From Nitrosopumilaceae archaeon (GTDB lineage: Archaea > Thermoproteota > Nitrososphaeria > Nitrososphaerales > Nitrosopumilaceae), in assembly GCA_965200155.1 (NCBI GenBank), contig CBDATR010000023.1, forward strand, positions 1-25,116: a stretch of DNA of 25,116 nt, given 5' to 3'. How positions within the stretch are numbered: the stretch's first letter is position 1; each line of letters begins with the position of its first letter. Below are positions 1 to 25,020 of the stretch, piece by piece. The position numbers and the translations under genes are program-made. Under the pieces are notes generated by a model. It had not been told where the DNA came from. It saw only the letters and a list, made by a program, of their open reading frames with translations, and searched no databases.

Positions 1-61
1 ACAAATCACATTAACTGTAGCGATCAGTTGTGCGTAAATTTAGACACAGGTGAACTCATAC
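1..61 (+). mobile_element. MITE-A copy, cut by window start
   Basis: Matches the last 61 nt of the 92-bp consensus and ends GTGAACTCATAC. Followed by AAACGGTTAC, a MITE-B terminus fragment. Confidence 0.9.
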
Positions 62-67
62 AAACGG

Positions 68-235
68 TTACCTCATACTCATGACTCGTTCATCAATCTC
101 TTGCCTTGTTTCATAGGTGTTAAGATGGCTTATCGTTTTCATGTAGGAATGGTCATCGAATACTTTAGTGAGTTGCTTTACTATTCCATCATGAAATACT
201 GGTACAGGTATCATTTTACAGCTGATGGATGACAT
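68..235 (-). pseudogene. Possible C-terminal gene fragment (55 codons) cut off by the IS5-like end at 237
   Basis: Open frame MSSISCKMIPVPVFHDG...ETRQEIDERVMSMR* abutting the IS terminus. Family not identified. Confidence 0.2.
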
Positions 236-236
236 T

Positions 237-548
237 AGACCTTATGCGCATGATTGACAGGAATAGCCCATGTTGCTTCAAACTGGGGTGTATTTTATGG
301 CACACAATCAGTCAAGCATGAACAATGTGAATGGCACCTGCCAGCACTAACGTATGCCGTGATTACAAATGTCGTGTAGTGGGGTGACCGGATCTTGATG
401 ACGTATATCATGAGTGAGCTAAATGGTTACCACAAAACCCATTAATTTAGTGGATTTTCTGATGAGTAATATTCGAATTATAATATCACGGAAATTATGG
501 ACAGATATTTTTCAAGAATTTCTTGTACCTGGTATGCTTGTGCATAAT
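237..548 (-). repeat. 312-bp tandem duplicate of the IS5-like element's downstream end
   Basis: 237-548 appears identical to 549-860. It starts exactly at the TIR AGACCTTATGCGCA and includes the last transposase codons. Confidence 0.9.
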
Positions 549-2094
549 AGACCTTATGCGCATGATTGACAGGAATAGCCCATGTTGCTTCAAACTGGGG
601 TGTATTTTATGGCACACAATCAGTCAAGCATGAACAATGTGAATGGCACCTGCCAGCACTAACGTATGCCGTGATTACAAATGTCGTGTAGTGGGGTGAC
701 CGGATCTTGATGACGTATATCATGAGTGAGCTAAATGGTTACCACAAAACCCATTAATTTAGTGGATTTTCTGATGAGTAATATTCGAATTATAATATCA
801 CGGAAATTATGGACAGATATTTTTCAAGAATTTCTTGTACCTGGTATGCTTGTGCATAATGTGTAAATTATGCAACCCGGATACTACGAGTAGATCTTCC
901 CGGAATTCCTCACGACTACCATCATATACCTGACTTAATCTACGATATACCTTTAGCATTCGAATTACATTCTCGATTAATATGCGCCTTTTTGATACAT
1001 ATTGGTTGTATTTCCTTTCAGTTTTAGTGAGTGATTCCCTACCCCTGTATGGAATCATGACCTTTGCGCCGGGTAGGAAGTCTTTCATACCCTGGTATCC
1101 TGCATCTGCTATTACTGTTATCTTATCGGATGGCGGCGTGGTTGATTCTTTTAGGGACTTGCCCCATTTGCCACCGAGGGGAATATCATTCTTGAATATA
1201 CCATAATCGTGTCTTTTTCCCTCATATACTCCACTTACGTGAATTATCAGTCTTTTCTTGTTTGATGTTATCTGTACGTTATACGTGTGGGTTTTTTGTT
1301 TACCAGAGTACATTGCCTCCTGATTTTTTTCAGGACGTTGTACGCGTACATGTGTCCCGTCAGTCTTTATTTCCCCTCCGGCTCGACCGGGAACAATTTC
1401 CTTAAAGTCCGATGCTGACTTGATTTGCGATATTGCTTTTGCAACGGTATCGGCCGTTGGGAGTATCTTGATCAGTCCCTGCTTTGTAAACTGGATGTAA
1501 CGGCATATGTTTGACTGGTTTATCTTGAGTATTGCTGCCAGCAGCTCCTGCTTTGTATTGCAGCGCAGGCGTATCAGTGTAACTAAGAGTACATGCCTGA
1601 CCGGAAATTTGTTCACGTGCCCGCGATCATTTGTAAGTTCTAAGAATCGCCGTGCATCATCGCCTTCCAGGGACTCTACGTATTCTGTGAATCTGATTAA
1701 TATCCATTTGAACTCTTCCGGGGTGCACCCGGTCAGGGAATGAAGCTGATCCTTGCGTTCTATGATGCCATCGAGATTTGAAACGAGGGCATTCTTTGTT
1801 TGAGCTTCAAGTTTGGCGTGCAGGCTGTCATTTTTCCCACGTAAACTGTCAACTTTGCCACGCAGGTTTGTTACTTCGGCCTCGGACCTGGTGCGTAGCC
1901 GGTAGTACTCTGTGACTAACTGCTCCCTGGTGAGTTCTTCTGCTTTTAGCATACCTGGTATTACAAAATTAGGTCTTAACTTTTCTGTTTCACACGAGTC
2001 TGTGGGAAAACCCATGATACTAGGTCAATTGTTCGTATCTAACAACTTGGTTTAGACGTGCAGGGTGGGAGAAGTGATTCTGCGCATACGGTCT
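549..2094 (-). mobile_element. IS5-superfamily (ISL2/DDE_Tnp_4-like) insertion sequence, apparently complete
   Basis: TIRs AGACCTTATGCGCA (549-562) and TGCGCATACGGTCT (2081-2094) match 13/14. AAT flanks both sides (possible 3-bp TSD). Contains an intact transposase ORF. Confidence 0.85.
807..1952 (-). CDS. DDE transposase, IS5/ISL2-like (HTH + DDE_Tnp_4); ORF is open upstream to 2015
   Basis: Motifs LTGCTPEEF, TDGTHVRVQRP, MYSGKQKTHTYN, GKRHD, IADAGYQG, RILIENVIRMLK are typical of this transposase group. Confidence 0.88.
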   Translation of the reverse strand: MLKAEELTREQLVTEYYRLRTRSEAEVTNLRGKVDSLRGKNDSLHAKLEAQTKNALVSNLDGIIERKDQLHSLTGCTPEEFKWILIRFTEYVESLEGDDARRFLELTNDRGHVNKFPVRHVLLVTLIRLRCNTKQELLAAILKINQSNICRYIQFTKQGLIKILPTADTVAKAISQIKSASDFKEIVPGRAGGEIKTDGTHVRVQRPEKNQEAMYSGKQKTHTYNVQITSNKKRLIIHVSGVYEGKRHDYGIFKNDIPLGGKWGKSLKESTTPPSDKITVIADAGYQGMKDFLPGAKVMIPYRGRESLTKTERKYNQYVSKRRILIENVIRMLKVYRRLSQVYDGSREEFREDLLVVSGLHNLHIMHKHTRYKKFLKNICP

Positions 2095-2338
2095 AATAAA
2101 AAATAATAAACTAAAGAAAGAAGATCTTCCAATTCCACCAGAAGCACAGACGTATATCATAAATACCAAACCGAAACATAAAGCGAGAAATTTTATACGT
2201 TATAAGAAAATATGTGGTATGTATATAGATGTAAATATTAGTGGTCAGTGTTGTGTACAAAATGCAATTAAATTAATTAAAGCTACAAATACACGTCTCC
2301 CTGATTTTAAATTAGTATTAGCTACTAGTTAATGATAC

Positions 2339-2417
2339 GATATGTCTAATTTTACACACGACGTATCACAATAATTAGTGTGATTTAAGCACGTAAATAT
2401 AAGATGTAAACTCGTAC
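2339..2417 (-). mobile_element. Decayed MITE-A relative (older subfamily)
   Basis: ATATGTCTAATTTTACACACGAC...GTGATTT...AAGATGTAAACTCGTAC aligns loosely to reverse MITE-A and resembles the decayed copy at 6694. Confidence 0.6.
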
Positions 2418-2426
2418 GATTATCCA

Positions 2427-3354
2427 CTATTCCACATAATGATGATGAACCAAATCATCATAGAATCTGACCGATTTTATATTAACAAACTCCAGCATTC
2501 CATACCTTGATAGCTCCCTCCCAAATCCACTATGCTTTATCCCACCAAAGGGAATTCTGGGATCTGATACGACCACATTATTCACGCTAACTATTCCTGA
2601 TTCAATGCGCCTCGATATCTTTTCTGCCTTCTGTAAGTTCTTTGTCCATATACTGGCACCCAGACCAAACTCAATATCATTGGCAAGTCTTATGGCCTCG
2701 TTTTCATCCTCGACTATAGTTATGGGTGCAACAGGTCCAAAGGTCTCCTCACTGGTAATCCTCATATTTGATTCTATATTGGTAAGTATGGTCGGCTTGT
2801 AAAAGAACCCGTCCCTGTCCATTTGCGAGCCTCCCAAAAGTATCTCTGCTCCCTTCTCCTTTGCATCCTCCACAATCCCAGAAATGGTATCAAGGCTATC
2901 TTTGCTTGAGAGGGAGCCAATATCTGTCTCCAATGATGCAGGATCCCCAACTCTCAACTGTGACGTCTTTTTAACAAACATCTCTATGAAATCCTTGGCA
3001 ACACTCTTACTCACAAAGAACCGCTTTGATGCCACACAGCTCTGCCCGCAATTGATAAATCTGCCCTTTACGGCTCCTTCGGCTGCCTTCTCTACTATTG
3101 CATCATCTAATACTATGAAGGGATCACTACCTCCCAGCTCCAGGACACATTTTTTCAGGTTCCTGGCTGCTCTTTGGCCCACCTTTGCCCCTGCATTTGT
3201 ACTTCCAGTAAAAGTGACAGCATTCACGTCCGAGTCAATCAGGTGATTCGCCGAGTCCACACTACCGACGACTGTCTGAAATATTCCCTCGGGTATACCT
3301 GATTCAGTAAACGCCTTTTCTATCTCCAATCCAGATTGCAATGTAACCCTGGAC
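2427..3354 (-). pseudogene. NAD(P)-dependent aldehyde dehydrogenase (succinate-semialdehyde dehydrogenase-like), 5'-truncated
   Basis: Motifs FTGST, LELGGSDP, NCGQSC, EETFGPV, PFGGIKHSGFGRE are present. The frame runs into MITE-A at 3355 and the N-terminal part of the cofactor-binding domain is missing. Confidence 0.85.
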
Positions 3355-3446
3355 GTATGAGTTCACCTGTGTCTAAATTTACGCATAACTGATCGCGACA
3401 GTTAATGTGATTTGTGCATAAGATTCCGGAAGACGTGAACTCATAC
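3355..3446 (-). mobile_element. MITE-A (92 bp), no TSD, at a deletion junction
   Basis: Perfect 12-bp TIRs. Flanks CCCTGGAC and CATTTGTA differ. Confidence 0.95.
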
Positions 3447-3972
3447 CATTTGTAAGCTCCATGAAGTATGAGTTCACCTGTGTCTAAATTTACGCATAAC
3501 TGATCGCGACAGTTAATGTGATTTGTGCATAAGATTCCGGAAGACGTGAACTCATACTCCATGAATCGCCGTGCATCATCGCCTTCCAGGGACTCTACGT
3601 ATCTGTGAATCTGGTTAGTATCCATTTGAACTCTTCCGGAGTGCATCCGGTCAGGGAATGAAGCTGATCCTTGCGTTCTATGATGTCATCAAGATTTGAA
3701 ACGAGTGCATTCTTTGTTTGAGCTTCAAGTTTGCCACGCAGGTTTGTTACTTCGGCCTCGGACTCGGTGTGTAGACGGTTGTACTCTGTGACTAACTGCT
3801 CCTTGGTGAGTTCTTCTGCTTTTAGCATACCTGGTACTACAAAATTAGGTCTTAACTTTTCTGTTTCACACTAGTCTGTGTGTGAAAACCCATGATACTG
3901 GGTCAATTGTTCGTATCTAACAACTTGGTTTAGACGTGCAGGGTGGGAGAAGTGATTCTGTGCATACGGTCT
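3447..3972 (-). mobile_element. Truncated second copy of the IS5-like element (upstream end and transposase N-terminus)
   Basis: Diverged copy of about 1628-2094, ending TGTGCATACGGTCT. Has a 42-bp deletion, a frameshift and a MITE-A insertion. Confidence 0.9.
3466..3557 (-). mobile_element. MITE-A (92 bp)
   Basis: TIRs present; 8-bp TSD TCCATGAA at 3458-3465 and 3558-3565. Confidence 0.95.
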
Positions 3973-3995
3973 ATTATTCCCCCGCCCTACTATAA

Positions 3996-5065
3996 TGTCA
4001 ATAGTACGAAAAGTAAGTCCGCTTAGGATCCGGCGTACAGTAGTTCAGATTGCACAAGCCAGATGGTAAAGAGAATAACAGAGGAATCAAGACAAAAGAG
4101 GCGTTGCCACCACCAAAATAGCTCAAGACCTGAAACAAGACACGTACGAAGATTGTGAACCAGAGAACGGGAACGACTCGAGTAAAGATGGGCAGGCCCA
4201 TGATACCAATCACCGCCACCCAGATACTAATGGTAACTGAAGCATACAGCAAGGACCCCGCCGGAGGTATGAGTTCACGTCTTCCGGAATTTTATGCACA
4301 AATCACATTAACTAGAACAACCTGTTCCATCAGTTATGCGTAAATTTAGACACAGGTGAACTCATACCGCCGGAGTAGTACGTATTGCAAAGAGGCTTAG
4401 ACATAATACATATCGCGCAGTATATCGCATAATGAAAAAGAATGGTACGGCAGGCTCATCACCTGCAAAGTCAGAGTGGGTACGCTATGAGCGTAAATAT
4501 TCCAATGCAATGTGGCACTGGCATGTCATGAAAAGATGAGCGCTTCAGGGGACTGAATCTCATAGATGATGCATCCAGGTGTATAGTCGGGGCGGCACTA
4601 TTTGAGCATGCAACCTCAGAGAACGCCCCGCTCTATTACTGAGACTGGCAATGAAACAATTCGGCGCCCCTGCATCTCGGATAACGGCGCGTGTTTCGTA
4701 GGACAATAAAAGGGCAAAAAGAACTGGAAACCCACTATTCTAGGAAGAACTGCTGAATCAAGACATCATACTAATCAATTCCAGACCATACCACCCGCAG
4801 ACAAATGGCAAACTGTAGCGCTTCCACAGAACGATTGAGGACGAGGGGACTCTTATTTAAGAGTCCGACGAGATATGGCATTATGACAGTCTCCGGGATT
4901 ATATCGACTACTACAATGAGAGAAGATTGCACTTCTCACTGGATATAGATAACGGCGAAACGCCGCTTCAGGAATAAAAAGGCGACCCAGACAATTAGGG
5001 CAAATGATGCAAAATGGATGGAGCGAGATACCAATGACTAGCGGACCGACTTTTCATACATTACA
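3996..5065 (+). mobile_element. IS481-family element, pseudogenised
   Basis: TGT...ACA ends with imperfect TIRs (TGTCAATAGTACGAAAAGTAAGTCCGCT / AGCGGACCGACTTTTCATACATTACA). Broken frames encode WVRYERKYSNAMWH, SDNG, SRPYHPQTNGKL and YIDYYNERRLHFSL (rve-type core). Confidence 0.82.
4267..4367 (+). mobile_element. MITE-A variant (101 bp) nested in IS481
   Basis: TSD CGCCGGAG. Central GTCGCG is replaced by AGAACAACCTGTTCC. Confidence 0.95.
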
Positions 5066-5144
5066 TTTCGTACTATTTGAATACATTGCAGCCAGTGAAT
5101 ACATATAAAAAAAGTTTTTAAAAAGAATCTAATATGTGCAAATT

Positions 5145-5555
5145 ATGACAAACAGGGCAATCAAGATATTGGTGGCAAAACTTGGACTGGATGGTCATGA
5201 TCGGGGCGCCTTGGTACTGTGCAGGGCATTTCGTGACGCTGGCATGGAGGTAATATACTCTGGTCTCTTTGCAACTCCGGACCGTATAGCACAAATAGCC
5301 GAAGACGAGGATGTGGATGCTGTGGCTATGAGTCTATTAAACGGGGCTCACAACACACTGTTTCCCCGTGTGGTATCAAAAATGAAGGAAAAGAATCTTG
5401 ATGATGTACTGGTAGTGGGCGGGGGTGTGATACCTTACTCTGATTATGTACAACTTCGGGATTCCGGTGTAGATAGAGTATTCGGGCCCGGAGCTCCACT
5501 CCCGGAGATAATCCAGCATATAGAGAGCGGTGTGGCACAGCGAAGAAGTCTGTAG
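5145..5555 (+). CDS. Cobalamin-binding subunit of an acyl-CoA (methylmalonyl-CoA) mutase
   Basis: AKLGLDGHDRG (DxHxxG) and VVGGGVIP motifs in a stand-alone B12-binding domain. Confidence 0.92.
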   Translation: MTNRAIKILVAKLGLDGHDRGALVLCRAFRDAGMEVIYSGLFATPDRIAQIAEDEDVDAVAMSLLNGAHNTLFPRVVSKMKEKNLDDVLVVGGGVIPYSDYVQLRDSGVDRVFGPGAPLPEIIQHIESGVAQRRSL

Positions 5556-5643
5556 CGAAGCATCTTTTATCAAAGGTACGATACTGTGTACAACTTTACA
5601 GTCATGTGTCATTATTAAGAAAAATATGTCATATTGTCTGCGG

Positions 5644-6642
5644 TCATTCTGTGGATTCTGACCACATCATTTTTCGCATACGACGGCCCACCTGCTCTAT
5701 CTGGTGATCCTCCATCTGTTTTATGTAGCGATCAAAGGAGTTGCGCCCGTTCTTTTTGTACTCTGAAACCCATTCCTCGTTGAATGTGCCATTCTGTATC
5801 ATGTCTAGAACTTTCTTCATGTTGTCCTTGTTGGCTTCGTTCATAACCATGGGTCCTCTGGTCAGGCCACCATACCTGGCGGTCTCGCTGACGCGGTTCC
5901 ACATTCCATTGATGCCGTATCTCTGTATCATGTCAACTATAAGCTTCAACTCGTGCAGTACCTCAAAGTAAGCTATTTCTGGCTGATAGCCTGCCTCCAC
6001 CAGTGTCTCAAATGCATTTGTGACCATCTGGGCTGCTCCTCCGCAGAGATCTGCCTGCTCACCAAACCAGTCTGTCTCAACCTCTTCTTGGAACGTGGTC
6101 TTGATTAGACCTGCTCTAGCGCTACCAATAGCCTTGCCTATGCCTAATGTTCTGTCCCAGGCGGTGCCAGTGTAATCCTGGTGAACTGCCACTATGGACG
6201 GGGTACCAAAGTTCTGTAGATATGTCTCGCGTACCTTGGAGCCAGGTCCCTTGGGTGCCACCATTATAATGTCGATGTTACTTGGTGCTTGTATCCATTT
6301 CCAATGAATGGCTGCCGCATGCGAGAAGGATAAGGCCTTGTTTTCAGTAAGGTGTGGTGCAATGTCATTGCTGTATACTTGGGACTGCATCATATCTGGT
6401 ATCAGGACATGTATTATGTCCGCTTCCTTGCATGCGTCAGCAGTCGCCATAACGCGGTGACCTGCCTTCTCTGCCTTGTTCCAGCTCGCGCTGTCTCTTC
6501 TTAGGCCTACAACCACATTCAGGCCTGTATCTCTCATATTGTCTGCCTGAGCCTCTCCCTGTATGCCATACCCCAAGACGGCCACAGTCTGATCCGCTAT
6601 AGCGTCAATCTTTATGTCGTTGTCTTTCCATGTTTGTGCCAT
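5644..6642 (-). CDS. ilvC: Ketol-acid reductoisomerase
   Basis: LGYGIQG, MVAPKGPG, EVETDWFGEQADLCGG, AYFEVLHELKLIVD and VSETARYG motifs. Confidence 0.97.
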   Translation of the reverse strand: MAQTWKDNDIKIDAIADQTVAVLGYGIQGEAQADNMRDTGLNVVVGLRRDSASWNKAEKAGHRVMATADACKEADIIHVLIPDMMQSQVYSNDIAPHLTENKALSFSHAAAIHWKWIQAPSNIDIIMVAPKGPGSKVRETYLQNFGTPSIVAVHQDYTGTAWDRTLGIGKAIGSARAGLIKTTFQEEVETDWFGEQADLCGGAAQMVTNAFETLVEAGYQPEIAYFEVLHELKLIVDMIQRYGINGMWNRVSETARYGGLTRGPMVMNEANKDNMKKVLDMIQNGTFNEEWVSEYKKNGRNSFDRYIKQMEDHQIEQVGRRMRKMMWSESTE

Positions 6643-6693
6643 ATGTTGCCCGTATGTATGGTTCCAATATTAACCATTGATGCTGCGCGCAGA

Positions 6694-6885
6694 GTATGAG
6701 TTCGCATATGTCTAAATTCACACACGACGAATAGCGACGATTAGTACTACTTTAGTATGAGTTCACCTGTGTCTAAATTTACGCACAACTGATCGCTACA
6801 GTTAAAGAACCGGTTCTTTTGTGCATAAGATTCCGGAAGACGTGAACTCATACCGACTTTAAGCACATGGAAGATTTGAACTCAA
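6694..6885 (-). mobile_element. Decayed MITE-A relative interrupted by a young MITE-A
   Basis: Starts GTATGAGTTCGCATATGTCTAAATT and resumes after 6861, ending GAAGATTTGAACTCAAA. Confidence 0.7.
6755..6853 (-). mobile_element. MITE-A variant (99 bp, internal 16-bp palindrome)
   Basis: TSD CTACTTTA / CGACTTTA (7/8). AAAGAACCGGTTCTTT at 6804-6819. Confidence 0.93.
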
Positions 6886-7566: not shown

Positions 7567-7658
7567 GTATGAGTTCACCTGTGTCTAAATTTACGCACAA
7601 CTGATCGCGACAGTTAATGTGATTTGTGCATAAGATTCCGGAAGACGTGAACTCATAC
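7567..7658 (-). mobile_element. MITE-A (92 bp)
   Basis: TSD TGTTTAGA. Confidence 0.95.
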
Positions 7659-7898
7659 TGTTTAGACCCTCCGGATCGCCAAACCGCCCGTTAAACTCAT
7701 GAATTTTATCCCATCTCTTGTCAGAAAGAATCCGCCATTCAGGACACCGGTGAACCTCAGTCCAAGGTTACGCATCTCTTTCAGTATTCTCTCCATCACA
7801 CTCTTGCATGCCTCCAAGTCATTATGGGTCATGAATGGCAATACCTTTGCCGGTCCGGTAAAGCAGCCCATGCAGTCTGTCCCGGGACCTGTATCATC

Positions 7899-7990
7899 GT
7901 ATGAGTTCACCTGTGTCTAAATTTACGCACAACTGATCGCGACAGTTAATGTGATTTGTGCATAAGATTCCGGAAGACGTGAACTCATAC
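7899..7990 (-). mobile_element. MITE-A (92 bp) with hybrid flanks
   Basis: Left flank GTATCATC is the TSD of the 8231 copy; right flank TGTTTAGA is the TSD of the 7567 copy. Confidence 0.95.
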
Positions 7991-8230: not shown

Positions 8231-8322
8231 GTATGAGTTCACCTGTGTCTAAATTTACGCACAACTGATCGCGACAGTTAATGTGATTTGTGCATAAGAT
8301 TCCGGAAGACGTGAACTCATAC
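8231..8322 (-). mobile_element. MITE-A (92 bp)
   Basis: TSD GTATCATC. Confidence 0.95.
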
Positions 8323-9199: not shown

Positions 9200-9702
9200 G
9201 TATCGCAATGGGATGGTGCCATCACACACTTACTGAGTTCGCCTGCATCTACATTTATACGCGGCAGCAGCAATGACTAGTATAGAGGTCACCATAAGTC
9301 TTTGAGAACATGGCACCTCGTAGTATGGCACCCCGACCATAGTTAGATGGTAACTCGCACACCACTCCAGATCAGGGCGCCACTTTGTTAATCCCAGGAA
9401 CAAACCATTCTTGTTGGACGGGTAAACCGTCCCCTGATAACCGTTTTAGAACGCGGTAGCTGATTCACGTATAATGAATCACCCTTCTTTAGGCCATATG
9501 GTGACTTGGTGGACTAGTTCCTATTCTTGATCTTGGCCGGATCATGCTTCAATTCGAGAGTGGTTCCCGGTATGTAGTAACCGCCAAGACTGATCTCGGA
9601 TACCGCCTTGTTATACACGTAATCGGATGTGTGTCCAAATATCTTTGCGCGCCTGGAGAACTCCCTATCCGTTTTCAACTGTATTCCGGGTTGTGTCGTC
9701 AA
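9200..9702 (-). pseudogene. Possible degraded TnpB-like (IS200/IS605/IS607 accessory nuclease) N-terminal remnant
   Basis: IQLKTDREFSRRAKIFGHTSDYVYNKAV resembles the TnpB N-terminal 'FG..R.VYN.A' motif. Downstream frames are broken and the left boundary is approximate. Confidence 0.4.
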
Positions 9703-9913
9703 TCATCTGGTGATTCTACTCTGGTAGTGGTTCCATATAAGCACGGTCCTATGCCCGGCAAAGACTTATGGTGGGCGCTATACCATCTTGCCTAGCAATG
9801 CATGAGCCCGTACACATATGGTGTAACTCAGTACACGAGCCATCACGTGTATTCTGTGACATTCAAATCTTGTATAAAATGAAGAGATACTGTATTAGTA
9901 TAACGGCGGCGGT

Positions 9914-13197: not shown

Positions 13198-13438
13198 GTA
13201 ATCGTTTAGGTACGTAAAAATCAGACATCTAGACGATAAACCCATGAGCATATGTGAGGCATTATGATAGAAAAGGCAAGAATGGATATGTTCGCGGTGT
13301 ATTTTGGTATGAGTTCACGTCTTCCGGAATCTTGTGCACAAATCACATTAACTGTCGCGATCAGTTGTGCGTAAATTTAGACACAGGTGAACTCATACGT
13401 ATTTTGAGCGGTTGTCTAGGAGTGACCTAAACGGTTAC
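13198..13438 (+). mobile_element. MITE-B (141 bp once the nested MITE-A and one TSD are removed)
   Basis: TIRs GTAATCGTTTAGG / CCTAAACGGTTAC. Inverted, diverged homolog of 16638-16885. Confidence 0.8.
13307..13398 (+). mobile_element. MITE-A (92 bp) nested in MITE-B
   Basis: TSD GTATTTTG. Confidence 0.95.
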
Positions 13439-13479
13439 GTCTTCATCGAATGTAACTAGGAGTTTCATACCGATATCAA

Positions 13480-13725
13480 CGCGGCGTTTAGTAACCGGTT
13501 TCCCTGCATCGGGCGGCCGAGTGGGTCGTCCGGGGGGCGGTTTACCCGCCCAACCGGAGGCGTCAGGGCGGAACGCGTGGCGACCAACCAAAACATACAC
13601 GTCTCACTGGCAAGGCGCCATGAAGATCATAGTCAAGGACTTATCGCCGCTATAGCCACAGAACCAAATTCTCTTGGTCTTTGGCAGTGACCGGTTGTCC
13701 CACACCTGCACGGGATGACCTACGT
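13480..13725. ncRNA. Candidate structured non-coding RNA, family unassigned
   Basis: GC-rich intergenic island with nested stems (GGTCGTC/GGCGACC, CCGG/CCGG, GGGCGG/CCGCCC, GCGT/ACGC) and no convincing ORF. Confidence 0.5.
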
Positions 13726-14750: not shown

Positions 14751-14751
14751 A

Positions 14752-15111: not shown

Positions 15112-15427
15112 GTAACAGTCTAAGTCAATTCTTCAGTACTGGACATTATGCAAATAGGTCTACAAAGCAACGAAGTTCAAAACGATCACGCATAAAAATT
15201 CACACCGTGGATTTACTGACCTTTATGCATAATCTCCACTGTCTACTAATCTGTGCAGCCTGTCACTTGTGCATATGAAATAGCAAATTCGTCTATAGTT
15301 TTTTTTTTGGATTGTGTGAGTGCACCGGTGTCTAAATTTATGCACGACTGATAGTGACTATCAGTGCATGAAATTAAGACGTGAACTTTGAATTTGATAG
15401 CTGGACGGTGTTAGCCCTAAATGGCTC
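15112..15427. mobile_element. Decayed MITE-B-like ends enclosing a decayed MITE-A (about 15314-15390)
   Basis: GTAACAGTCTAAGTCA ... CCCTAAATGGCTC, with inner GTGTGAGTGCACCGGTGTCTAAATTTATGCAC...AAGACGTGAACT. Confidence 0.5.
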
Positions 15428-15933: not shown

Positions 15934-15988
15934 GTATGAGTTCATCTGTTCCTAAATCTATGCCCAACTAATACCAAATGATTCGTAC
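15934..15988 (-). mobile_element. Decayed, shortened MITE-A relative
   Basis: GTATGAGTTCATCTGTTCCTAAATCTATGCCCAACT aligns to one MITE-A end. Confidence 0.55.
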
Positions 15989-16065
15989 AAGTCTGCCAAT
16001 TTTTGCATGGAGCGCCAAACTATTCTGTACAACAAGTTTATTTCATTGTCTTGTGTAATAGCAAC

Positions 16066-16413: not shown

Positions 16414-16514
16414 TCTGGAATTAAGCACAAGTCACATCTGTGAGTGATTACTAACACCAATTTTGTCCTACACATACTTATCTATACGCGTGATCTTGAA
16501 GTCAAGCTTATGTG

Positions 16515-16587
16515 GGCCCTCGAGGGGGATCGAACCCCTGTCCGGGGATCCACAGTCCCCTATACTAGCCACTATACGACGAGGGCC
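16515..16587 (-). tRNA. tRNA-His (GTG)
   Basis: Cloverleaf with acceptor GCCCTCG/CGAGGGC, anticodon arm GGGGA-CTGTGGA-TCCCC, T-loop GTTCGAT, C discriminator and encoded G-1. Confidence 0.95.
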
Positions 16588-16637
16588 ACGCATGTATGAC
16601 GCTGTTCTTGGTAATATATCATGACCACTTGGAGGTA

Positions 16638-16885
16638 GTACCCGTTTAGGTCACTCCGGACAACTGTCCAAAATACACCGCTAACATGTCACTTCTTGTT
16701 TTTTATATCATGTTGCCTAACATATGCCCATGAATTGTATGAGTTCACGTCTTCCGGAATCTTATGCACAAAAGAACCGGTTCTTTAACTGTCGCGATCA
16801 GTTATACGTAAATTTAGACACAGGTGAACTCACACCATGAATTTGCCATCTGGGTGTTGATCTTCAACGCGACCTAAACGGTTAC
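16638..16885 (-). mobile_element. MITE-B (141 bp once the nested MITE-A and one TSD are removed)
   Basis: TIRs GTACCCGTTTAGGTC / GACCTAAACGGTTAC. Reverse-complement homolog of 13198-13438. Confidence 0.8.
16737..16835 (+). mobile_element. MITE-A variant (99 bp) nested in MITE-B
   Basis: TSD CATGAATT. Palindrome AAAGAACCGGTTCTTT at 16771-16786; right TIR mutated (CTCACAC). Confidence 0.95.
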
Positions 16886-17235: not shown

Positions 17236-17642
17236 GTATGAGTTCACGTCTTCCGGAATCTTATGCACAAATCACATTAACTGTCACGATCAGTTATGCG
17301 TAAATTTAGACACAGGTGAACTCACACTAGAGGAGACCTTCATGTGATAGAAATGGCCACATGTATGTGCGGCAAAAAACAACTGGTCCCAGCAGCGGGC
17401 GTACCAGAGAGTGGTGGTTTTGGAGTTCAATTATGTGGTGCCATCACTGCATTACGTGCGGAAAAGATTCCAATAAAGCGCATACCTGTAATTTCGAGGG
17501 ATCTCTTCGGCCTGAATATATCGGTGGGTGCGGTAAACAACATAATTGCCGTATGAGTTCACCTGTGTCTAAATTTATGCACAACTGATCGCGACAGTTA
17601 ATGTGATTTGTGCACAAGATTCCGGAAGATGTGAACTCATAC
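17236..17642. mobile_element. Composite mini-transposon: inverted MITE-A pair (17236-17327 +, 17551-17642 -) around a 223-bp IS66 transposase fragment
   Basis: A single TSD GTGATTAA flanks the whole unit (17228-17235, 17643-17650). Cargo 17328-17550 is homologous to about 22952-23175. Confidence 0.92.
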
Positions 17643-17688
17643 GTGATTAAAGCTCAACTAATAAACCCCATTAACAATCACACACTCC

Positions 17689-18720
17689 ATGAGTAAGACT
17701 GCCGTGGTGATCCGGGGGGATGGGATAGGTCCCGAGGTGGTAGATTCCATGCTACAGGTACTTCGTGAATGCGGTATACAGTCAGAAATTATACTACAGG
17801 ATGCAGGCTCAGAGCAATGGGATAAAAATGGCCGACGGGATGTGTCCTATATTCCGGAAACAACCATGGACGCGCTGACCGCGTGTGATGCATGCTTTAA
17901 GGGTCCTACAACTACCATACCAATACCTGATGCCCCCAAGAGCGTGGCCGTTACACTACGCCAAAAGTTTGATCTATACGCAAACATACGCCCCACCAAG
18001 ACATATGATAGACTGACTCCTGATCGCTCCCTGGATTGTGTCTGTTTCAGGGAAGCCACAGAAGGGCTCTATACTGGAGTTGAGGTGGCCATTACACCGG
18101 ACGCGGCTATAGCGATACGCAAAATTACCCGGAGAGGATCCCGGCGGCTTCTAGACTCGGCAGTAAGATGGGCTCTCAAAAATGATATGAAAAAGATGGT
18201 GTGTATAACCAAACGCAATATACTGAAGCAGACCGACGGGATATTCTGGGAAGAAGCTCAGGCAGCGGTACGGGGCACCGGAATAGAGTTATCTGAGATA
18301 TACATTGACAATATGGCTCAACAGCTGGTTATAGCTACCAGACAATTTGATGGGGCGGTGTTGGTAAGTACCAACCTCTTTATGGATATAATATCGGAGC
18401 TGGCCTCTGCACTGGTGGGTTCAATAGGCCTGATATATTCTGCTAATATGGGTGATGGGTTTGCAATGTTTGAGGCGGCTCACGGTAGTGCCCCACAATT
18501 TGCGGGACAAAACAAGGTAAATCCCACTGCATCCATACTATCCGGCGCCTGGATGGCGGGGTACTTGGGTGAGGAGGATATTCAGGGTGCCATATTCCGG
18601 GCAACTGCAGATGTAATAAACGAGGGGAAGACAGTAACTTGGGATATAGGTGGCTCGGCTACCACCTCTGCCATGACCGGCAGTATAGCAAAGCGCGCAA
18701 AAATGTATCTTCATCGATAG
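17689..18720 (+). CDS. Isocitrate/3-isopropylmalate dehydrogenase family protein (LeuB-like)
   Basis: GDGIGPEV, LRQKFDLYANIRP, REATEGLY, NLFMDIISE and FEAAHGSAP motifs. Confidence 0.93.
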   Translation: MSKTAVVIRGDGIGPEVVDSMLQVLRECGIQSEIILQDAGSEQWDKNGRRDVSYIPETTMDALTACDACFKGPTTTIPIPDAPKSVAVTLRQKFDLYANIRPTKTYDRLTPDRSLDCVCFREATEGLYTGVEVAITPDAAIAIRKITRRGSRRLLDSAVRWALKNDMKKMVCITKRNILKQTDGIFWEEAQAAVRGTGIELSEIYIDNMAQQLVIATRQFDGAVLVSTNLFMDIISELASALVGSIGLIYSANMGDGFAMFEAAHGSAPQFAGQNKVNPTASILSGAWMAGYLGEEDIQGAIFRATADVINEGKTVTWDIGGSATTSAMTGSIAKRAKMYLHR

Positions 18721-19241
18721 GCACGCAATACGTACAGCTCCTCAAAGAATAGTTTTTTCTTCATTGCAATCTCTGCATGTAATCCTAGTGACCTGGCAAG
18801 ATTCAGGAGTTGATCATATCTTGACAGTGATGATGTGATCATGGCCAGCTGACCGCCCGGCTTTAGCAGGGGTGCAGCTGAGCACATGAACATACCGGGT
18901 ATCGCGATTCCACCGGGGCCTCCGTCAGTATCCGGGAATCGTATCACTTCTGTGTCAAGGTATGGCGGATTACTAAGTATGGCATCGAACTGTCCGTGTA
19001 TGGCATCGGCAGCATTGCAGCAGACTGGATTTGTGACCGGATATGTCTGGTTACAAAGTATGTGAAAGGAAATTTCTGTACACACTACACGCTTAAAGTT
19101 TCTCTCCAATACCTTGCTGACATAACCGGATCCGCCTCCTATCTCTAGGGCAGATTCGCCAGATAGCTCCTCGATATAATCACAGAGTAGATATGTATCC
19201 TCGGATGGCGTATACTCATTGTATGGTTTTGACAAATTCAA
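18711..19241 (-). CDS. HemK2/Mtq2-like N5-glutamine methyltransferase
   Basis: YTPSEDTYLL, LEIGGGSGYV, SNPPY and DGGPGG motifs; lies downstream of rsmA. Confidence 0.88.
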   Translation of the reverse strand: MNLSKPYNEYTPSEDTYLLCDYIEELSGESALEIGGGSGYVSKVLERNFKRVVCTEISFHILCNQTYPVTNPVCCNAADAIHGQFDAILSNPPYLDTEVIRFPDTDGGPGGIAIPGMFMCSAAPLLKPGGQLAMITSSLSRYDQLLNLARSLGLHAEIAMKKKLFFEELYVLRAYR

Positions 19242-19893
19242 TAACCTGTGAGGCGTTAAGGTCGTCTAGACGCCGTGGATATGGGTCACGATACAGTATC
19301 TTGCGGCGTTGCGAGAAGAGTTGGTGCAATTTACGAATGGTGTTCTGATGTATTGTGTCAAATTTCTCAAAGGCTAGGACCACCGATTTTACCCGCGGCG
19401 GGGGCTCAAAACTCTCCGGATTCACCATAAGTGATTTTACAATACGAAACGCACTCTGCCATACAACGGATATGGCTCGCATATTCGTCCCCATCCGGGT
19501 TAGCTTACGTGCAAATTCATCCTGGACCATTATTGCGCCACATCGGAAGGTCTTTGTGGCTAACCACTCAACGGCTCTTCTACTCTGGGAGTATGGCAGG
19601 TTTGAGGCAAAGACATCAAATGTGGTATTAGTCTTGAATCCGTCGCCATGGGTGAGTGTAAGGTTGGGGGTACTTCCCAACCGACTGGTTACTCTCTCAT
19701 ATATGATAGGGTCTGACTCAATGGATATAACATGTCCTGCGTCCCTGCACAGCTTTTCTGTTAGGATGCCGTGCCCTGTCCCTACCTCCAACACAGTATC
19801 ATGCTGCGTAGTTCTGCTCATTTGGGTAATCTGATCAGCCAATCTTTGTGAGGTCAAGAAATGTTGTCCAAGCCTGTGTCGTCTTGAAATCAT
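19216..19893 (-). CDS. rsmA: 16S rRNA adenine dimethyltransferase (KsgA/Dim1)
   Basis: RLGQHFL, VLEVGTGHGILT, SNLPY and SFEPPPRVKS motifs. Confidence 0.93.
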   Translation of the reverse strand: MISRRHRLGQHFLTSQRLADQITQMSRTTQHDTVLEVGTGHGILTEKLCRDAGHVISIESDPIIYERVTSRLGSTPNLTLTHGDGFKTNTTFDVFASNLPYSQSRRAVEWLATKTFRCGAIMVQDEFARKLTRMGTNMRAISVVWQSAFRIVKSLMVNPESFEPPPRVKSVVLAFEKFDTIHQNTIRKLHQLFSQRRKILYRDPYPRRLDDLNASQVIEFVKTIQ

Positions 19894-19928
19894 GATTCTA
19901 AGCAGTGACACTGCCAGTGTGGCTTGTG

Positions 19929-20255
19929 TTATTTATCCTCATGGATTATTCTGTGTATCTTAGTTAGCGTCTCTGCCAGTATGAGCTTACGCCAACCGAA
20001 TGTGAAGGATCGTATCTCTGCCAATGTGCCGGGCATTATGTTTATTATTTCCACTGCTTCCTCATCAGTAAGCCCGCACTCTTTTATCAATGCGCTCCTC
20101 ATTCTACGAGCCTGCTTTGCTTCCACTTGTGCAAAGGCAGAGACATAGTCAAAAGTCCAACGCTGTATTTGGTCCAATTGCTCCACATCCATTTTTGAGA
20201 ATATTTCTTTCACTTCGGGAAGAGTAACCGGCTCGCTGCGCTTTATGTCCTTCAT
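19929..20255 (-). CDS. rpo4: DNA-directed RNA polymerase subunit F (Rpo4)
   Basis: VTLPEVKEI...IQRWTFDYV...EAVEIINIMP; sits in the conserved archaeal order rpl21e-rpo4-(...)-rsmA. Confidence 0.9.
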   Translation of the reverse strand: MKDIKRSEPVTLPEVKEIFSKMDVEQLDQIQRWTFDYVSAFAQVEAKQARRMRSALIKECGLTDEEAVEIINIMPGTLAEIRSFTFGWRKLILAETLTKIHRIIHEDK

Positions 20256-20557
20256 GTCTGTACCCCAAACGGCTTTATGTGATCCAGCCTTGTAATGAGC
20301 ATCTTGGTCTTTTTGCCAAGTTTAACATCCAGCGTTATCATGCGCCTTCCAACCTCGGACACTGTGCCCACTTTGCCGTGATACCTCCTATGTGGTAATC
20401 CCTTGTGCTGCCGCGGATCTATAATGACAAGGGCTCTGTCTCCTACAGCATACTCCCGAAGTAGGAATGATACTCCACGCGGCTGTTTCTTTGTCATTAC
20501 GGATCTTGATTTATGCCTAAACCCATGAGAACGACCTGACGGCTTTTTTGTGGTCAT
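20252..20557 (-). CDS. rpl21e: 50S ribosomal protein L21e
   Basis: SHGFRHKSR and HKGLPHRRYHGKVGTV motifs. Confidence 0.96.
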   Translation of the reverse strand: MTTKKPSGRSHGFRHKSRSVMTKKQPRGVSFLLREYAVGDRALVIIDPRQHKGLPHRRYHGKVGTVSEVGRRMITLDVKLGKKTKMLITRLDHIKPFGVQT

Positions 20558-20777
20558 ATAGTAGCAATGTTGGAACACCATATTTTAACCGTATGTATCG
20601 ACGTATCGTGAATCTGGAACCAAGAATGCCACTACGTTCTGTCTCATAACCCTGATCAAGCTAATTCTACCATGCATTTACTTGAGTGGATGCCATCAAG
20701 TGGTGGCAGTACCTACCATGTGGAGTTCATATCCAATATAGTAATACATTTTAAATGAGCTGGCCGAATATCTATCA

Positions 20778-21552
20778 ATGAAAATTGTTCAGATATCTGA
20801 ATTGCATGTAGGATCGCAGTTTCTTGAGTCAAAGTTCTACAAGATGGCTTTGGAGGTTAATGAACTGAATCCTGACGTCGTGGTTATAACAGGAGATCTT
20901 ACCAATGATGGTATTCTCAGCGAATATGAGCGATGCTCACAACTCCTCTCCACAATAACCACAAAGACCATATGATAGCGGTAACCACGACTATCGCAAT
21001 ACTGGCTGCCTATTGTTCCGGAGATACTTTCCATCAAGGAACGTGACAGATTTGAGAGAGAATGTTGTACTGGCTACTATTGGCACAGCACGACCGGATC
21101 GCAATGAAGGCGAGGTGGGGTACAGACAGAATTTGTGGCTAGAGGATACGCTCAAGAAGTACGCGTATAGCCGGATACTGGTAGCCATGCACCATCATCT
21201 TATTGACGTTCCGGATATGGGTCTTGATCATCAAACAATACGCGACGCCGATGTTCTGCGCACTATACTAGCTTCCGGGGTAAGTTTGGTGATGTACTGC
21301 CACAACCATCGCCCGTGGCTTTGGGATCTTGGTAAGCTCAAGGTAGTGAATGACGGAACTGCAACTTTTCAAAGACCACGTGGTCTCTTTGAGAATACCT
21401 ACAACGTAATCACAATAAATGATGGTGTAGTGGATATAGATCTCAAGATAGTAGGCGGAGCGCGGTTTACCTCTATCGAGATAGTACGCAACTACAACCA
21501 GTTTAACTCTTGTAACACACCGTTGCCTGGTTCTGCTAGAAAAGAACCATGA
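20778..21552 (+). pseudogene. Calcineurin-like metallophosphoesterase, frameshifted
   Basis: ISELHVG, VVITGDLT, (shifted frame) SGNHD, MHHH and CHNH. Frame break near 20970, and conserved motifs look substituted (E for D in DxH, C for G in GHxH). Confidence 0.8.
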
Positions 21553-21584
21553 CTTATTTACTACACTAATTATGCCTCTCATGT

Positions 21585-21668
21585 GCGGGGATCGCCTAGC
21601 CTGGTAGGGCGTGGGATTGCTAATCCCATGTCAGAAATGACACGGGGGTTCAAATCCCCCTCCCCGCG
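21585..21668 (+). tRNA. tRNA-Ser (GCT)
   Basis: Acceptor GCGGGGA/TCCCCGC, anticodon arm TGGGA-TTGCTAA-TCCCA, long variable arm TGTCA-GAAA-TGACA, T-loop GTTCAAA. Confidence 0.95.
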
Positions 21669-21704
21669 CTTCGTTTAATACTGTCATCTATGTAATATTT
21701 AGGA

Positions 21705-21866
21705 ATGGGAAGGCGTAAGACACAAAAAATAATTCGTACTGCACAACGAAATTCCACAATAGGTCGTTGTCCCCACTGCAGAACAATAGGCAAAATCATC
21801 CTCTTGGGTAAGCCAGGTCAAGAGAAATGTAAATGTGATAAGTGTAGAGGGGAATTTGACATATGA
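21705..21866 (+). CDS. Small Zn-ribbon protein (53 aa) with Elf1-like basic N-terminus
   Basis: Hand translation: MGRRKTQKIIRTAQRNSTIGRCPHCRTIGKIILLGKPGQEKCKCDKCRGEFDI*, with two CxxC motifs. Shorter than anything in the ORF track. Confidence 0.7.
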   Translation: MGRRKTQKIIRTAQRNSTIGRCPHCRTIGKIILLGKPGQEKCKCDKCRGEFDI

Positions 21867-21927
21867 TGCTCGGCTTGTAATGCATTGTCGAGCATTATCA
21901 CTCTCTTTTATTGAGACCTAACATGTG

Positions 21928-22019
21928 GTATGAGTTCACCTGTGTCTAAATTTACGCACAACTGATCGCGACAGTTAATGTGATTTGTGCACAAGATTCC
22001 GGAAGACGTGAACTCATAC
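21928..22019 (-). mobile_element. MITE-A (92 bp) at an inversion breakpoint
   Basis: Flanks AACATGTG and AGATCTTT differ. AGATCTTT is the reverse complement of AAAGATCT at 22480-22487. Confidence 0.95.
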
Positions 22020-22191
22020 AGATCTTTCTCGGTAGACGCAAGGGTATCCTGAAGAAGTTTATTTTCCAGTTCCAATTCCTTATAGGACCGGCGTCTTCTC
22101 ATTAGATTCTTATTGCAAATTTGGTATTTAAGTAAAATATTGTCATACCAATCTATATCTTAGTGAATGATCAAAACACGTGAACTCATAC
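22020..22191 (-). mobile_element. Inverted left end of the IS66-family element (IRL, leader and first ~27 transposase codons)
   Basis: 24-bp TIR at 22168-22191 reads GTATGAGTTCACGTGTTTTGATCA on the minus strand. ATG at 22102 gives MRRRRSYKELELENKLLQDTLASTEKD, which joins KDLAHYKE at 22480. Confidence 0.88.
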
Positions 22192-22432
22192 CAGATAATC
22201 TCTCGGTCTTGAAATGGGATTCATCCTGGGTAACAATGGCATAATCCATCTTTATGTAACGTGCAGCCTTTTCTGACATTTCTTGCCTCCATTTTTTCAC
22301 GTCTTCCATTGAATCATAATTCATGTGGATTGGGGATGACTTTTTGTTGGAGCAACCCCACTTTTTGGCGTAACGCTTGAACCTGATTTGCGCTCAGTCT
22401 TATTCCGGATATCTCTTCGAGGTAATCCTGCT
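22192..22432 (-). pseudogene. Inverted 5' part of an IS630-family transposase
   Basis: Minus strand reads ...KKWRQEMSEKAARYIKMDYAIVTQDESHFKTERLS and joins via ATTATCTG to VRFWAP at 24335. Confidence 0.78.
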
Positions 22433-22479
22433 GGGATGTATTCTATCTTATTATATGATCAAAACACGTGAACTCATAC
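22431..22479 (+). mobile_element. Extra copy of the IS66 right end (IRR')
   Basis: CTGGGATGTATTCTATCTTATTATATGATCAAAACACGTGAACTCATAC nearly matches 24286-24334. Confidence 0.85.
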
Positions 22480-24276
22480 AAAGATCTTGCACATTACAAG
22501 GAACGTGTGAGAGTATTGGAAGCATATGTGTCCCGCACCACAAAAGAAATACGAAATCTCACACAAGATTTCCAAATTATTAGGAATTATGTAAATGAAT
22601 TGAATGAGAAATTAAAAGAAAAACAGGGGAAAATTGCGGTACTCACAACGCGACTTAAATATTATGAGAATGCTCACTCGCCACCATCCCTTCAATCCCT
22701 CCAGTACAAGAAGCGAAAACAGGAGGAACAGAAGCGAAAACAGGGAGATAATAAGCAACAGACAGAAGCCAGTACGAAATCAGCCAAAAAGGCTGGCGCG
22801 CAAAAGGGACACAAGGGGGTTTCCCGTTCCCACAACCCCGGCAGAGTAGTGCATCACACCTTTGAGTACACACCAATATGTGAGTGCGGCAATATGATGA
22901 CAAAAATTGGTTGGAAACAACGACACATAACGGAATTAATACCAGCCAAAATAGAGGAGACCCTTCATGTGATAGAAATGGCTGCATGCAAGTGCGGCAA
23001 AAAACAACTGGCCCCAGCAGCGGGCGTCCCAAAGAGTGGTAGTTTTGGGGTTCAATTATGCGGTGCCATCACCGCATTACGCGCAGAAAAGATTCCAATA
23101 AAACGCATACCTGTAATTTCGAAGGATCTCTTCGGCCTAAATATATCGGTGGGTGCAGTAAACAACATAATTGCCAGGGCCGCCGATGCATGTGAATCAT
23201 TTATGGAAACAATTCATGAGAATATAATAAAATCACCCAGCATACATGTGGACGAAACTGGTATATCACTGGCGGGTAGGCGTGGCTGGGTATGGGGGAT
23301 GCGAGCCGAAGAGTGGATGATGTCCATATATGACAAAAGTAGGAGTTCAAATGTAGTGAACAAATACCTGAACGGTTACCAGGGAGCGATAGTCACAGAC
23401 AGGTACGTTGTGTATCGCCGGTTTGATGACGGTGGGAAGCACCAGTTGTGTTGGGCGCATTTATTGCGCGATACCCAGGCATTACATGCAGGATTCTATA
23501 TTGATCCCGGTGCTCAGGACGCCCGGATCAAACTTGACAACGACCTGAAAGGATTGTTCCGGAGCGCACGGGAATCCCTGAATCACTGCGGGCCGTCCGC
23601 GCAATTACGACACTCATTTGAGACAGGAGCAGATGCATCAGTACTGTGATGTTGATGATACTGAACTACAAAAGAAGGTAAAAGGATTGAATAAGGCCAT
23701 ACCATGCATGTTCGTATTCTTAGAATATGACAGTGTGGAGCCCACCAACAATCTAGCGGAGCAGGCTTTGCGATACGCAGTGGTATTCCGCAAGATTAGT
23801 GGCCAGATAAAAGGTGGTGAAAGGGCAATGCGCCGCATGTCTACATTTGTATCATGTGTTCAGACATGGAGGGCTCAAGGCCTGTATGAGTTCACGTCTT
23901 CCGGAATCTTATGCACAAATCACATTAACTGTCGCGATCAGTTGTGCGTAAATTTAGACACAGGTGAACTCATACGATCATGTTACTAATAGCGCCTGTG
24001 AGGGGTTGTATATCACTCATCTCAGAATTAACAGCATGGATTTTGCATATTCTATCATATTTTGATTGCAATCAGTAACCTGAGAATTCGTACCATGTAG
24101 TCGTTTAGGTGCCCAAAGTCACAATAATGTTTTCTTGTATGAGTTCACGTCTTCCGGAATCTTATGCACAAATCACATTAACTGTCGCGATCAGTTATGC
24201 GTAAATTTAGACACAGGTGAACTCATACCAAGGCCTTTCTGTTATGAACGAGGTTGCTGCCAGAATGCAGTTATAA
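22480..24276 (+). pseudogene. IS66-family (single-ORF, ISBst12-like) transposase, main body, disrupted
   Basis: Coiled coil, NAHSPPS, GAQKGHKG, CECG/CKCG Zn ribbon, HVDETG, TDRY, HQLCWAHLLRD and PTNNLAEQALR. Frameshift near 23620-23640. The true C-terminus QGLSVMNEVAARMQL* resumes at 24229 after the composite insertion. Confidence 0.92.
23884..24228 (+). mobile_element. Composite unit: direct MITE-A pair (23884-23975, 24137-24228) around 161 bp of cargo
   Basis: A single TSD CAAGGCCT at 23876-23883 and 24229-24236. Inner flanks do not match. Confidence 0.92.
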
Positions 24277-24310
24277 TTAAAAAAACTGGGACGCATTCTA
24301 TCTTATTATG

Positions 24311-24334
24311 TGATCAAAACACGTGAACTCATAC
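24311..24334 (+). repeat. IS66 right terminal inverted repeat (24 bp)
   Basis: TGATCAAAACACGTGAACTCATAC followed by TSD ATTATCTG, the reverse complement of CAGATAAT next to IRL at 22192. Confidence 0.9.
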
Positions 24335-25020
24335 ATTATCTGTGCGATTCTGGGCCCCTGCAGGCAGGCGCGTACTCATGGTATGGACCGGCGGGCGATA
24401 CCGGTTCTCCATGGCCTGTACCATTGATTAATGATGGCAGGGTATTCCTTGATGATTACACGATCATAGACACAGAGAATTTCCTGGATCACATGCATAA
24501 CAAGGTGGGCAAGATGGTACTGTTCGTGGACATGGCACACCTCAAGGAAGGCCAAAGAATTCTTTGCTGATCTGGACATAATCGTAATAGAGTATCCGGT
24601 TGGACATCCGTACCTGAATCCGGTCGAGGAATTCTGGAGCGTACTCAAGAGGGGGATGGATCACTCCATACGATATTCGGATATCAATTACCACAAGCAG
24701 GCAGTGTATGATTTCAAAGATGACCATAAGTTCGATTATGATTTTAACAAATTCTGGAACAGAAAACCAGCTGATGGATTAATACTACCAATCATGGAAT
24801 CGTATGAGTTCACGTCTTCCGGAATCTTATGCACAAATCACATTAACTGTCGCGATCAGTTATGCGTAAATTTAGACATAGGTGAACTCATACATGGAAT
24901 CAGTACGCAAGGGGGGACCCAGCGACCCAAGGCAGAAGAGGCGATTCAAAAATGCAGGCGGTGCGGAAAGTACATCCGTATCGGCCGGTGTAGCACAAAA
25001 GGCCAAACTTGCAAAGTAGA
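24335..25020 (+). pseudogene. 3' part of the IS630-family transposase, frameshifted
   Basis: MVLFVDMAH and EYPVGHPYLNPVEEFWSVLKR (IS630 'P..P.LNP.E..W..LK' motif). Right boundary approximate. Confidence 0.8.
24802..24893 (+). mobile_element. MITE-A (92 bp) in the IS630 remnant
   Basis: TSD ATGGAATC. Confidence 0.95.

Follow-up and report, generated by a model that had tools for sequence, protein, structure and literature searches.

A high-copy IS66-type miniature transposable element and its candidate partner transposon in a Nitrosopumilaceae genome

Why does a single contig of a Nitrosopumilaceae archaeon carry the same 92-bp sequence again and again? The stretch in question, hereafter the window, is contig CBDATR010000023.1 (25,116 nucleotides) of assembly GCA_965200155.1 and makes up the entire contig C23 of the genome that we call G000 (2.38 Mb in 51 contigs, 87.6% complete). 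A preliminary description, made from the letters of the window alone, had read the repeat as a recent, very high-copy MITE (a miniature transposable element with inverted repeats) of the IS66 type in a thaumarchaeote. Archaeal amoA was found in G000, in agreement with a thaumarchaeote host, and sponge metagenomes were among the sequencing runs containing this organism. We consider it very probable, on the sequence evidence given below, that the repeat is a non-autonomous IS66-family MITE of the ISBst12 type, mobilised in trans by the autonomous IS66 transposon of G000.

The copies were counted across the genome by BLASTN and by pairing of the element ends. BLASTN of the MITE against G000 returned 642 places, 567 of them full length and 382 of these at ≥95% identity. 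The terminal inverted repeat (TIR) of the element is 12 bp long and perfect, and its pairing recovered 554 elements of 70-130 bp (396 of 92 bp, 58 of 99 bp and 69 of 101 bp), which occupy 52.3 kb or 2.2% of G000. The very high copy number suspected from the window thus extends to the whole genome. A recent spread was likewise borne out: the two commonest sequences were present as 76 and 72 identical copies, and the mean divergence from the consensus was about 1% outside two haplotype sites. The mean pairwise difference of the 92-bp copies was 2.9%, mostly C-to-T apart from the two A/G haplotype sites. The MITE has only one stop-free frame. When ancient, diverged copies that could root the variants were sought, a single sequence was obtained.

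The flanks of these elements carry the mark of transposition. A perfect flanking duplication of 8 bp was present in 324 of 555 short end pairs, and no other length from 2 to 14 bp reached more than 17. A peak at 8 bp only indicates that the pattern is not due to chance. The duplication was found at 89 of 104 elements with both flanks unique and at 235 of 450 with repeated flank DNA. The targets were AT-rich, with a weak palindromic preference in the flanks, where G and C reach about 50% at two positions on either side. An empty paralog existed in G000 for 159 of the 311 testable sites. Moreover, the purD-like gene that is hit twice in the window is matched in five congeners by an uninterrupted reading frame of 448-582 aa, and its ortholog in the genome G001 is 100 bp shorter at both MITE positions. 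The proposed check for empty sites in sister genomes therefore gave 2/2 orthologous sites empty.

The burst itself was looked for in other genomes of the family. The exact 12-mer end was counted 1,213 times in G000, and none of 150 genomes of the family had it more than 6 times; by this count, no burst was found in those 150 genomes. The single match among relatives was a 22-base match. No match of the MITE was obtained in plasmids, phages or viral contigs or in Rfam, and a search with a 26-base exact pattern gave no match. Four metagenome matches to the TIR pattern were rejected, since they were tandem arrays without duplication and not this MITE.

The same ends also bound a 1.67-1.70-kb IS66 element of G000 with a single open reading frame (ORF), and the earlier IS66-type assignment is borne out by this autonomous single-gene element with 8-bp duplications of its own. 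Its transposase scored 222-226 bits against NCBIfam NF033517 (cut-off, 180) and matched Pfam PF03050 (DDE_Tnp_IS66); a zf-IS66 match lay below its cut-off. Residues D290, D339 and E462 were invariant in 11 aligned homologs. Each of two copies of the insertion sequence (IS) that were checked had one ORF of at least 300 aa, and TnpB_IS66 (PF05717) was not found in G000 (87.6% complete), with a control positive in 3/14. Among 18 end-to-end IS copies, 10 had an intact ORF of 501-530 aa, for instance at C10:266182-267726, and 11 had a perfect 8-bp duplication. Judged by these features, the partner IS belongs to the ISBst12 group of the IS66 family. The MITE and the IS66 share only the first 12-13 bases of their ends and have no interior match, so the MITE did not come about by simple deletion from the IS66; a separate element of 378 bp did. 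We infer mobilisation in trans from these common ends, although the shared TIR measures only 12-13 bp.

Relatives of the partner are distant. Outside the two clusters to which the transposase belongs, the eight nearest database proteins reached no more than 36-41% identity to it, and a search for related loci returned only distant IS66 proteins. Related IS66 proteins were present in 9/9 congeners at about 30% identity, some with similar ends and 8-bp duplications; related elements with similar ends were found in G001, G004 and G006. A degenerate end motif occurred only 4-34 times in five congeners, mostly as ends of full IS copies. Genome G063, from another genus of the family, contains a MITE of 80-82 bp (loci L091-L096; five copies by pattern) with the same terminal repeat, 8-bp duplications and a different interior.

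Within the window we found 15 end-to-end copies and one truncated by the contig start (1..61, plus strand), which confirms the 16 copies in both orientations counted before. The density (60 per 100 kb) compares with 22-28 per 100 kb on large contigs. The description of the copies as 92 bp long and a few bases apart holds for 12 of the 15, which differ from the reference copy at 13307 by 0-4 substitutions, and fails for two of 99 bp and one of 101 bp. All seven 8-mers previously named as unrelated duplications are true flanking duplications; an own perfect duplication is, however, limited to these 7 of the 15 full copies. The reading as one long imperfect inverted repeat is supported by folding z-scores of -3.0 and -3.7 for the RNA of the two strands and -3.3 for the DNA, values that include the 12-bp terminal repeat and alone are no proof of interior structure. 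Two features had been overlooked: over half of the window copies did not arise by simple insertion, and those of deviant length contain stereotyped palindromic inserts.

The seven copies with their own duplication lie in varied settings. One of them is the 92-bp copy at 3466..3557 (minus). The 101-bp variant at 4267..4367 (plus), with a 15-bp palindromic insert, sits in an IS481-like remnant, and its site has 80 empty paralogous hits. Two 92-bp copies (7567..7658 and 8231..8322, both minus) interrupt the purD-like pseudogene with its GARS_A domain, at the sites that are empty in the G001 ortholog. The reference copy of 92 bp (13307..13398, plus) and a 99-bp variant (16737..16835, plus) are each nested in an older element of about 142 bp (13198-13438 and 16638-16885). 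The last copy, 92 bp at 24802..24893 (plus), has five empty paralogous hits. The older family of about 142 bp has different GTA-starting ends, 8-9-bp duplications, 281 end matches genome-wide and decayed partners of 1.7-1.8 kb, and the 92-bp MITE is often nested inside it. Four degenerate partial relatives of the MITE itself (2343-2392, 6694-6738, 15314-15358 and 15934-15972; 76-84% identity) probably represent an older wave.

The remaining eight full copies depart from a simple insertion in several ways. One, the 99-bp variant with a 12-bp palindromic insert at 6755..6853 (minus), has flanks that match at 7/8 positions. Four share an outer duplication pairwise. The first pair forms a composite unit at 17236..17642, in which inverted MITEs (17236-17327 and 17551-17642) surround a 223-bp fragment of IS66 transposase within one outer 8-bp duplication. 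The second is the unit at 23884..24228 (plus), in which direct MITEs (23884-23975 and 24137-24228) enclose 161 bp from elsewhere, again within one outer 8-bp duplication; it sits in the 3' end of a broken autonomous IS66 (22020..24334, plus, right end at 24334). The left end and 5' part of this IS66 are inverted (22020-22192), and its transposase pieces lie at 22459-23643 and 23624-23887. The adjoining 92-bp MITE (21928..22019, minus) lacks its own duplication; the 8-mer on its right is matched by the one beside the IS66 end at 22480, marking an inversion of about 22020-22479. The 92-bp copy at 7899..7990 (minus) is a by-product of a 332-bp tandem duplication between its two neighbours. Only the 92-bp copy at 3355..3446 (minus), which adjoins a 5'-truncated aldehyde dehydrogenase fragment, has neither an own duplication nor a partner. 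No clear promoter or terminator signal was seen at the one copy checked.

Similar rearrangements were found throughout the genome. A matching 8-mer partner was found for 188 of 739 orphan ends, nested insertions included, compared with 21 ± 8 in shifted controls; this pairing argues that the ends of different copies act together. Seventeen MITE-cargo-MITE units had an outer duplication, 12 with direct and 5 with inverted MITEs. Four of the 17 were present at a second place with the donor unit retained, and one of these four is an inverted unit whose cargo of 2,528 bp is identical. This points to movement by duplication. Direct units could also arise from an excised circle recombining into an existing copy. 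IS481-like ends, for their part, were found within the MITE: 22 of 185 lay at one site in it, with 15-bp duplications and in both orientations.

The copies avoid genes. Unique genes cover 56% of the contigs but contain 21 of 324 copies; another 39 fall in repeated genes, and the other 264 lie outside genes. There was no enrichment near gene starts (13 of 254; expected, 8.9%) or stops (22 of 254; expected, 7.1%). We attribute the gene scarcity of the copies to purging. The purD-like gene of the window is a decayed spare, and an intact GARS gene is present on contig C1.

The mechanism that we favour is of the following kind. The IS66 DDE transposase would bind the MITE ends in trans and copy the MITE into AT-rich 8-bp targets. 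The route would probably be copy-and-paste, because the composite donor copies are still in place. Ends of different copies would also be used together and so give rise to composite transposons, to inversions and to adjacent rearrangements; recombination would occur between direct copies. Insertions into needed genes would be purged, and the survivors would accumulate in dead mobile DNA and spare genes.

Several results weigh against this account. The own duplication is missing in 230 of the 554 copies, and partners explain only part of these; the terminal repeat of the IS66 itself is about 24 bp, compared with the 12-13 bp shared with the MITE; and the gene positions behind the purging argument come from our own, crude gene caller. 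Adjacent ends showed no peak of junctions at spacers of 1-60 bp, as would mark circle or dimer intermediates. No empty-site joint was seen among the 15 of 35 joints shown for one 14.2-kb stretch with seven copies in four public runs, a search that used contigs only. For the palindromic inserts discussed below, neither terminus discovery nor TIR scans found a source element. The behaviour of two runs at the copy L023:1312 is suggestive of an empty allele: a contig of X1 ends exactly before this copy, and a contig of X3 leaves the stretch there.

Other explanations fared far worse. If the copies were intron-like, taken out of the RNA or cut out of the DNA in such a way that genes keep working, as introners are, then the long hairpin of the element, the restoration of the frame when it is removed with one duplication, and the two copies in the purD-like gene would all make sense. 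The scarcity of copies in unique genes (21/324 against 56% coding cover) rules this out, the purD-like gene has further lesions and an intact counterpart on C1, Rfam gives no match, and RNA contigs of run X6 stop at MITE junctions just as DNA contigs do; we rejected intron-like removal on the first of these points, the lesions and the intact GARS gene, and give it a negligible probability. An assembly artefact or a collapsed strain mixture might be suspected in a genome of 87.6% completeness and 51 contigs, the more so as the window starts inside a copy and contains exact 312- and 332-bp tandem duplications. However, at the copy L023:13529, contigs from the runs X1, X3 and X6 are broken at each of its two junctions (X1 is possibly the source sample of G000 and then not independent), and all four junction probes from X6 and X9 adjoin a MITE copy in G000. 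Misassembly cannot yield site-specific 8-bp duplications or orthologous empty sites, and we regard an artefact as extremely unlikely. The recurrence of junctions in other runs and the orthologous empty sites also settle the artefact check raised by the preliminary description in favour of genuine copies. The summed depth at one MITE position was hundreds of times the single-copy depth, a value that is not a copy number.

A different mover deserves hardly more credit. IS5/ISL2-like, IS481-like and older GTA-ended IS66 families are all abundant in G000, and any of their transposases, or a REP/REPIN-like spread, might be held responsible. The ends of these families differ from those of the MITE, the IS481-like element duplicates 15-16 bp, and the IS5-like element has other ends and, by eye, duplications of about 3 bp. 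REPINs are not known to make an 8-bp duplication. Taken together, these differences make another mover most improbable, and mobilisation of the MITE by its IS66 partner is by far the better account.

The length variants led to a second subject. At least one palindromic insert of 12-15 bp was present in 144 of the 554 MITE copies, at four positions. Each replaces 4-6 bp without target duplication, the longest variants (119-130 bp) stack three to five inserts, and up to four or five occur in one 92-bp lineage with almost no point mutations. In 38 alignments of the IS66 transposase, 7 bp immediately behind the catalytic glutamate have given way to an insert of this type, which introduces a stop; as the motif is unmarked in homologs, the insert was gained. 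For the MITE we likewise infer a gain, from the transposase case, two different inserts at one site and one nested insert; alternatively, a longer ancestor may have lost the sequence. Marked and unmarked paralogs were seen in at least three other repeat families. The 12-bp insert motif had 162 matches in G000 (control, 4), and 39 of 40 relatives had 0-3 each; the 162 reduce to 25 distinct sites, 19 of them touching repeats. Outside genes, the form with a two-base spacer occurred in 35 contexts, compared with 8.4 ± 5.1 for control cores, and the same central pair was found in 23 of 60 contexts. Three insert types occur on both single-nucleotide polymorphism (SNP) haplotypes in similar proportions with flanking SNPs still linked, which suggests short gene conversion or repeated gain. 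In the genome G008, 12 matches to the motif were found; they give no indication that the process acts there, as 9 of the 12 lie in one repeat. The window also has two pieces of a decayed TIR element (13445-13652 and 9290-9785; about 39 matches), whose GC-rich part contains several palindromic inserts in varying forms.

How the inserts are written is the weakest step of the proposed mechanism. Dead elements of G000 show many net 8-9-bp deletions with short filler, and such scars indicate error-prone end-joining that could have written the inserts. A reading of these deletions as excision footprints of the MITE was not supported, as their flanks lack the IS66 target motif: 27 pure 8-bp deletions gave a flank score of -0.36 ± 0.40 (control, 0.0; true sites, 1.87). 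The reading of the inserts that we favour is filler occasionally added when breaks are repaired, or a mobile cassette of very small size, spread afterwards by transposition of marked copies and short gene conversion; we hold this tentatively, at somewhat less than an even chance. It is less likely that a lost insertion sequence left them as footprints, or that they serve a host protein as binding sites and were favoured after their appearance. In support, one type of insert is the same as six bases of each end in the older GTA-ended IS66 family, and marked MITE subfamilies have been amplified (68, 42 and 19 copies). Against it, there is no target duplication, 4-7 bp are deleted, the half-sites are variable, a search for a full element with such ends gave none, and the insert in the transposase destroys the gene, giving the marked copy no favour. 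More doubtful still is an undescribed process that overwrites 4-7 bp with 12-15-bp palindromes (half-site R-K-A-A-Y), either a minimal mobile cassette or a transposon-disabling host system. The bare 8-bp core does not stand out among palindromes (rank 33 of 256 by distinct contexts), which speaks against a dedicated process. An all-against-all insertion screen for a source was too noisy to use.

The small dispersed repeats (SDR) of cyanobacteria that Elhai et al. treated in 2008 are said to be numerous palindromic sequences of 21-27 nt without target duplication. The inserts, found at several unrelated sites, resemble SDR as very short palindromic pieces without duplication; unlike SDR, they are 12-15 nt, degenerate and limited to about 25 sites. 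No description of the insert 10-mer was found in the literature.

Other features of the window and the genome are of interest in their own right. The window contains intact genes for tRNA-His (16514-16586) and tRNA-Ser (21585-21669), and a metallophosphoesterase-like gene (20778-21552) lies in two ORFs with no MITE inside. The IS481-like remnant (3998-5065) derives from an element of about 980 bp with 71 paired copies genome-wide and 15-16-bp duplications. A 3.74-kb unit with IS5/ISL2-like ends (236-3975) is duplicated on C31 at 99.8%; it carries a transposase, the truncated aldehyde dehydrogenase fragment and two MITE copies. This fragment and one MITE recur on C43, and a full-length gene is on C34. 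The exact 312-bp tandem duplication (236-847) lies at the left end of the IS5-like element. Repeated DNA makes up 27% of the non-MITE DNA on MITE-bearing contigs. Thirty-three contigs (265 kb; small ones such as C2, C6, C8, C26 and C33) are without the MITE; many of these have 35-41% GC, are rich in simple repeats and may be foreign to the archaeon. One clustered regularly interspaced short palindromic repeat (CRISPR) array with 288 repeats was found at C9:71011-92015. Its 287 spacers had no match in the genome outside the array, so neither the MITE nor the IS is targeted, and the palindromic insert core was present in 0/287. The centre of the CRISPR repeat resembles an end of the older GTA-ended family, probably by chance.

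Compared with known systems, the element shows each testable feature of an IS66/ISBst12-type MITE and is of an ordinary kind with an unusual copy number. The partner IS is like ISBst12 and ISDge4 in its single transposase ORF, short GTA-starting TIRs, 8-bp duplication and retained donor; what differs here is the non-coding 92-bp partner element. ISDge4 is described, in the accessible part of PMC12898284, as a copy-and-paste element with a single ORF and 8-bp duplication. The MITEs of Sulfolobus solfataricus (SM1-SM4), haloarchaea and Methanosarcina are likewise short, TIR-bounded, non-autonomous and mostly outside genes. SM1-SM4 reach 25-44 copies per family in the available text of PMC10969869, and the part of PMC11602168 at hand gives a maximum of 251 MITEs of all families per archaeal genome in a census of 8,220 genomes. 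A single G000 family reaches 554, by another detection method than that census, and may have the highest single-family MITE count in an archaeon. Among bacteria, ERIC has 711 copies in Photorhabdus (PMC10969869) and MITECca01 of Cardinium 169 copies or 3.5% of the chromosome (PMC9769881, PMC10969869), according to excerpts of these sources. As far as those excerpts go, ERIC, Correia elements and MITECca01 share with the G000 family a lineage-specific burst in a host-associated genome, an intact parental IS and landing mainly in mobile elements, whereas they use other transposase families; stereotyped palindromic overwriting is not mentioned in the same excerpts for bacterial high-copy MITEs (PMC9769881, PMC10969869). 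Transposases are enriched in some sponge thaumarchaea (PMC7848895), and the highest archaeal IS content, 14.95%, is that of a Nitrosopumilus genome (PMC13343696), both from partial texts. In the literature searched on IS66, archaeal and thaumarchaeal MITEs, this element was not described; it could be listed in ISfinder, in subscription papers or in the supplements of PMC11602168 and PMC13343696.

For this little-studied group of transposases, the G000 family supplies a MITE-transposase pair as it occurs in nature, and its more than 300 insertion sites give a definition of the target preference. If a dedicated process makes the palindromic inserts, that process would amount to a new type of mutation or a new way of controlling transposons. 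The family also presents a host-associated archaeon in a phase of repeat expansion known from bacterial symbionts.

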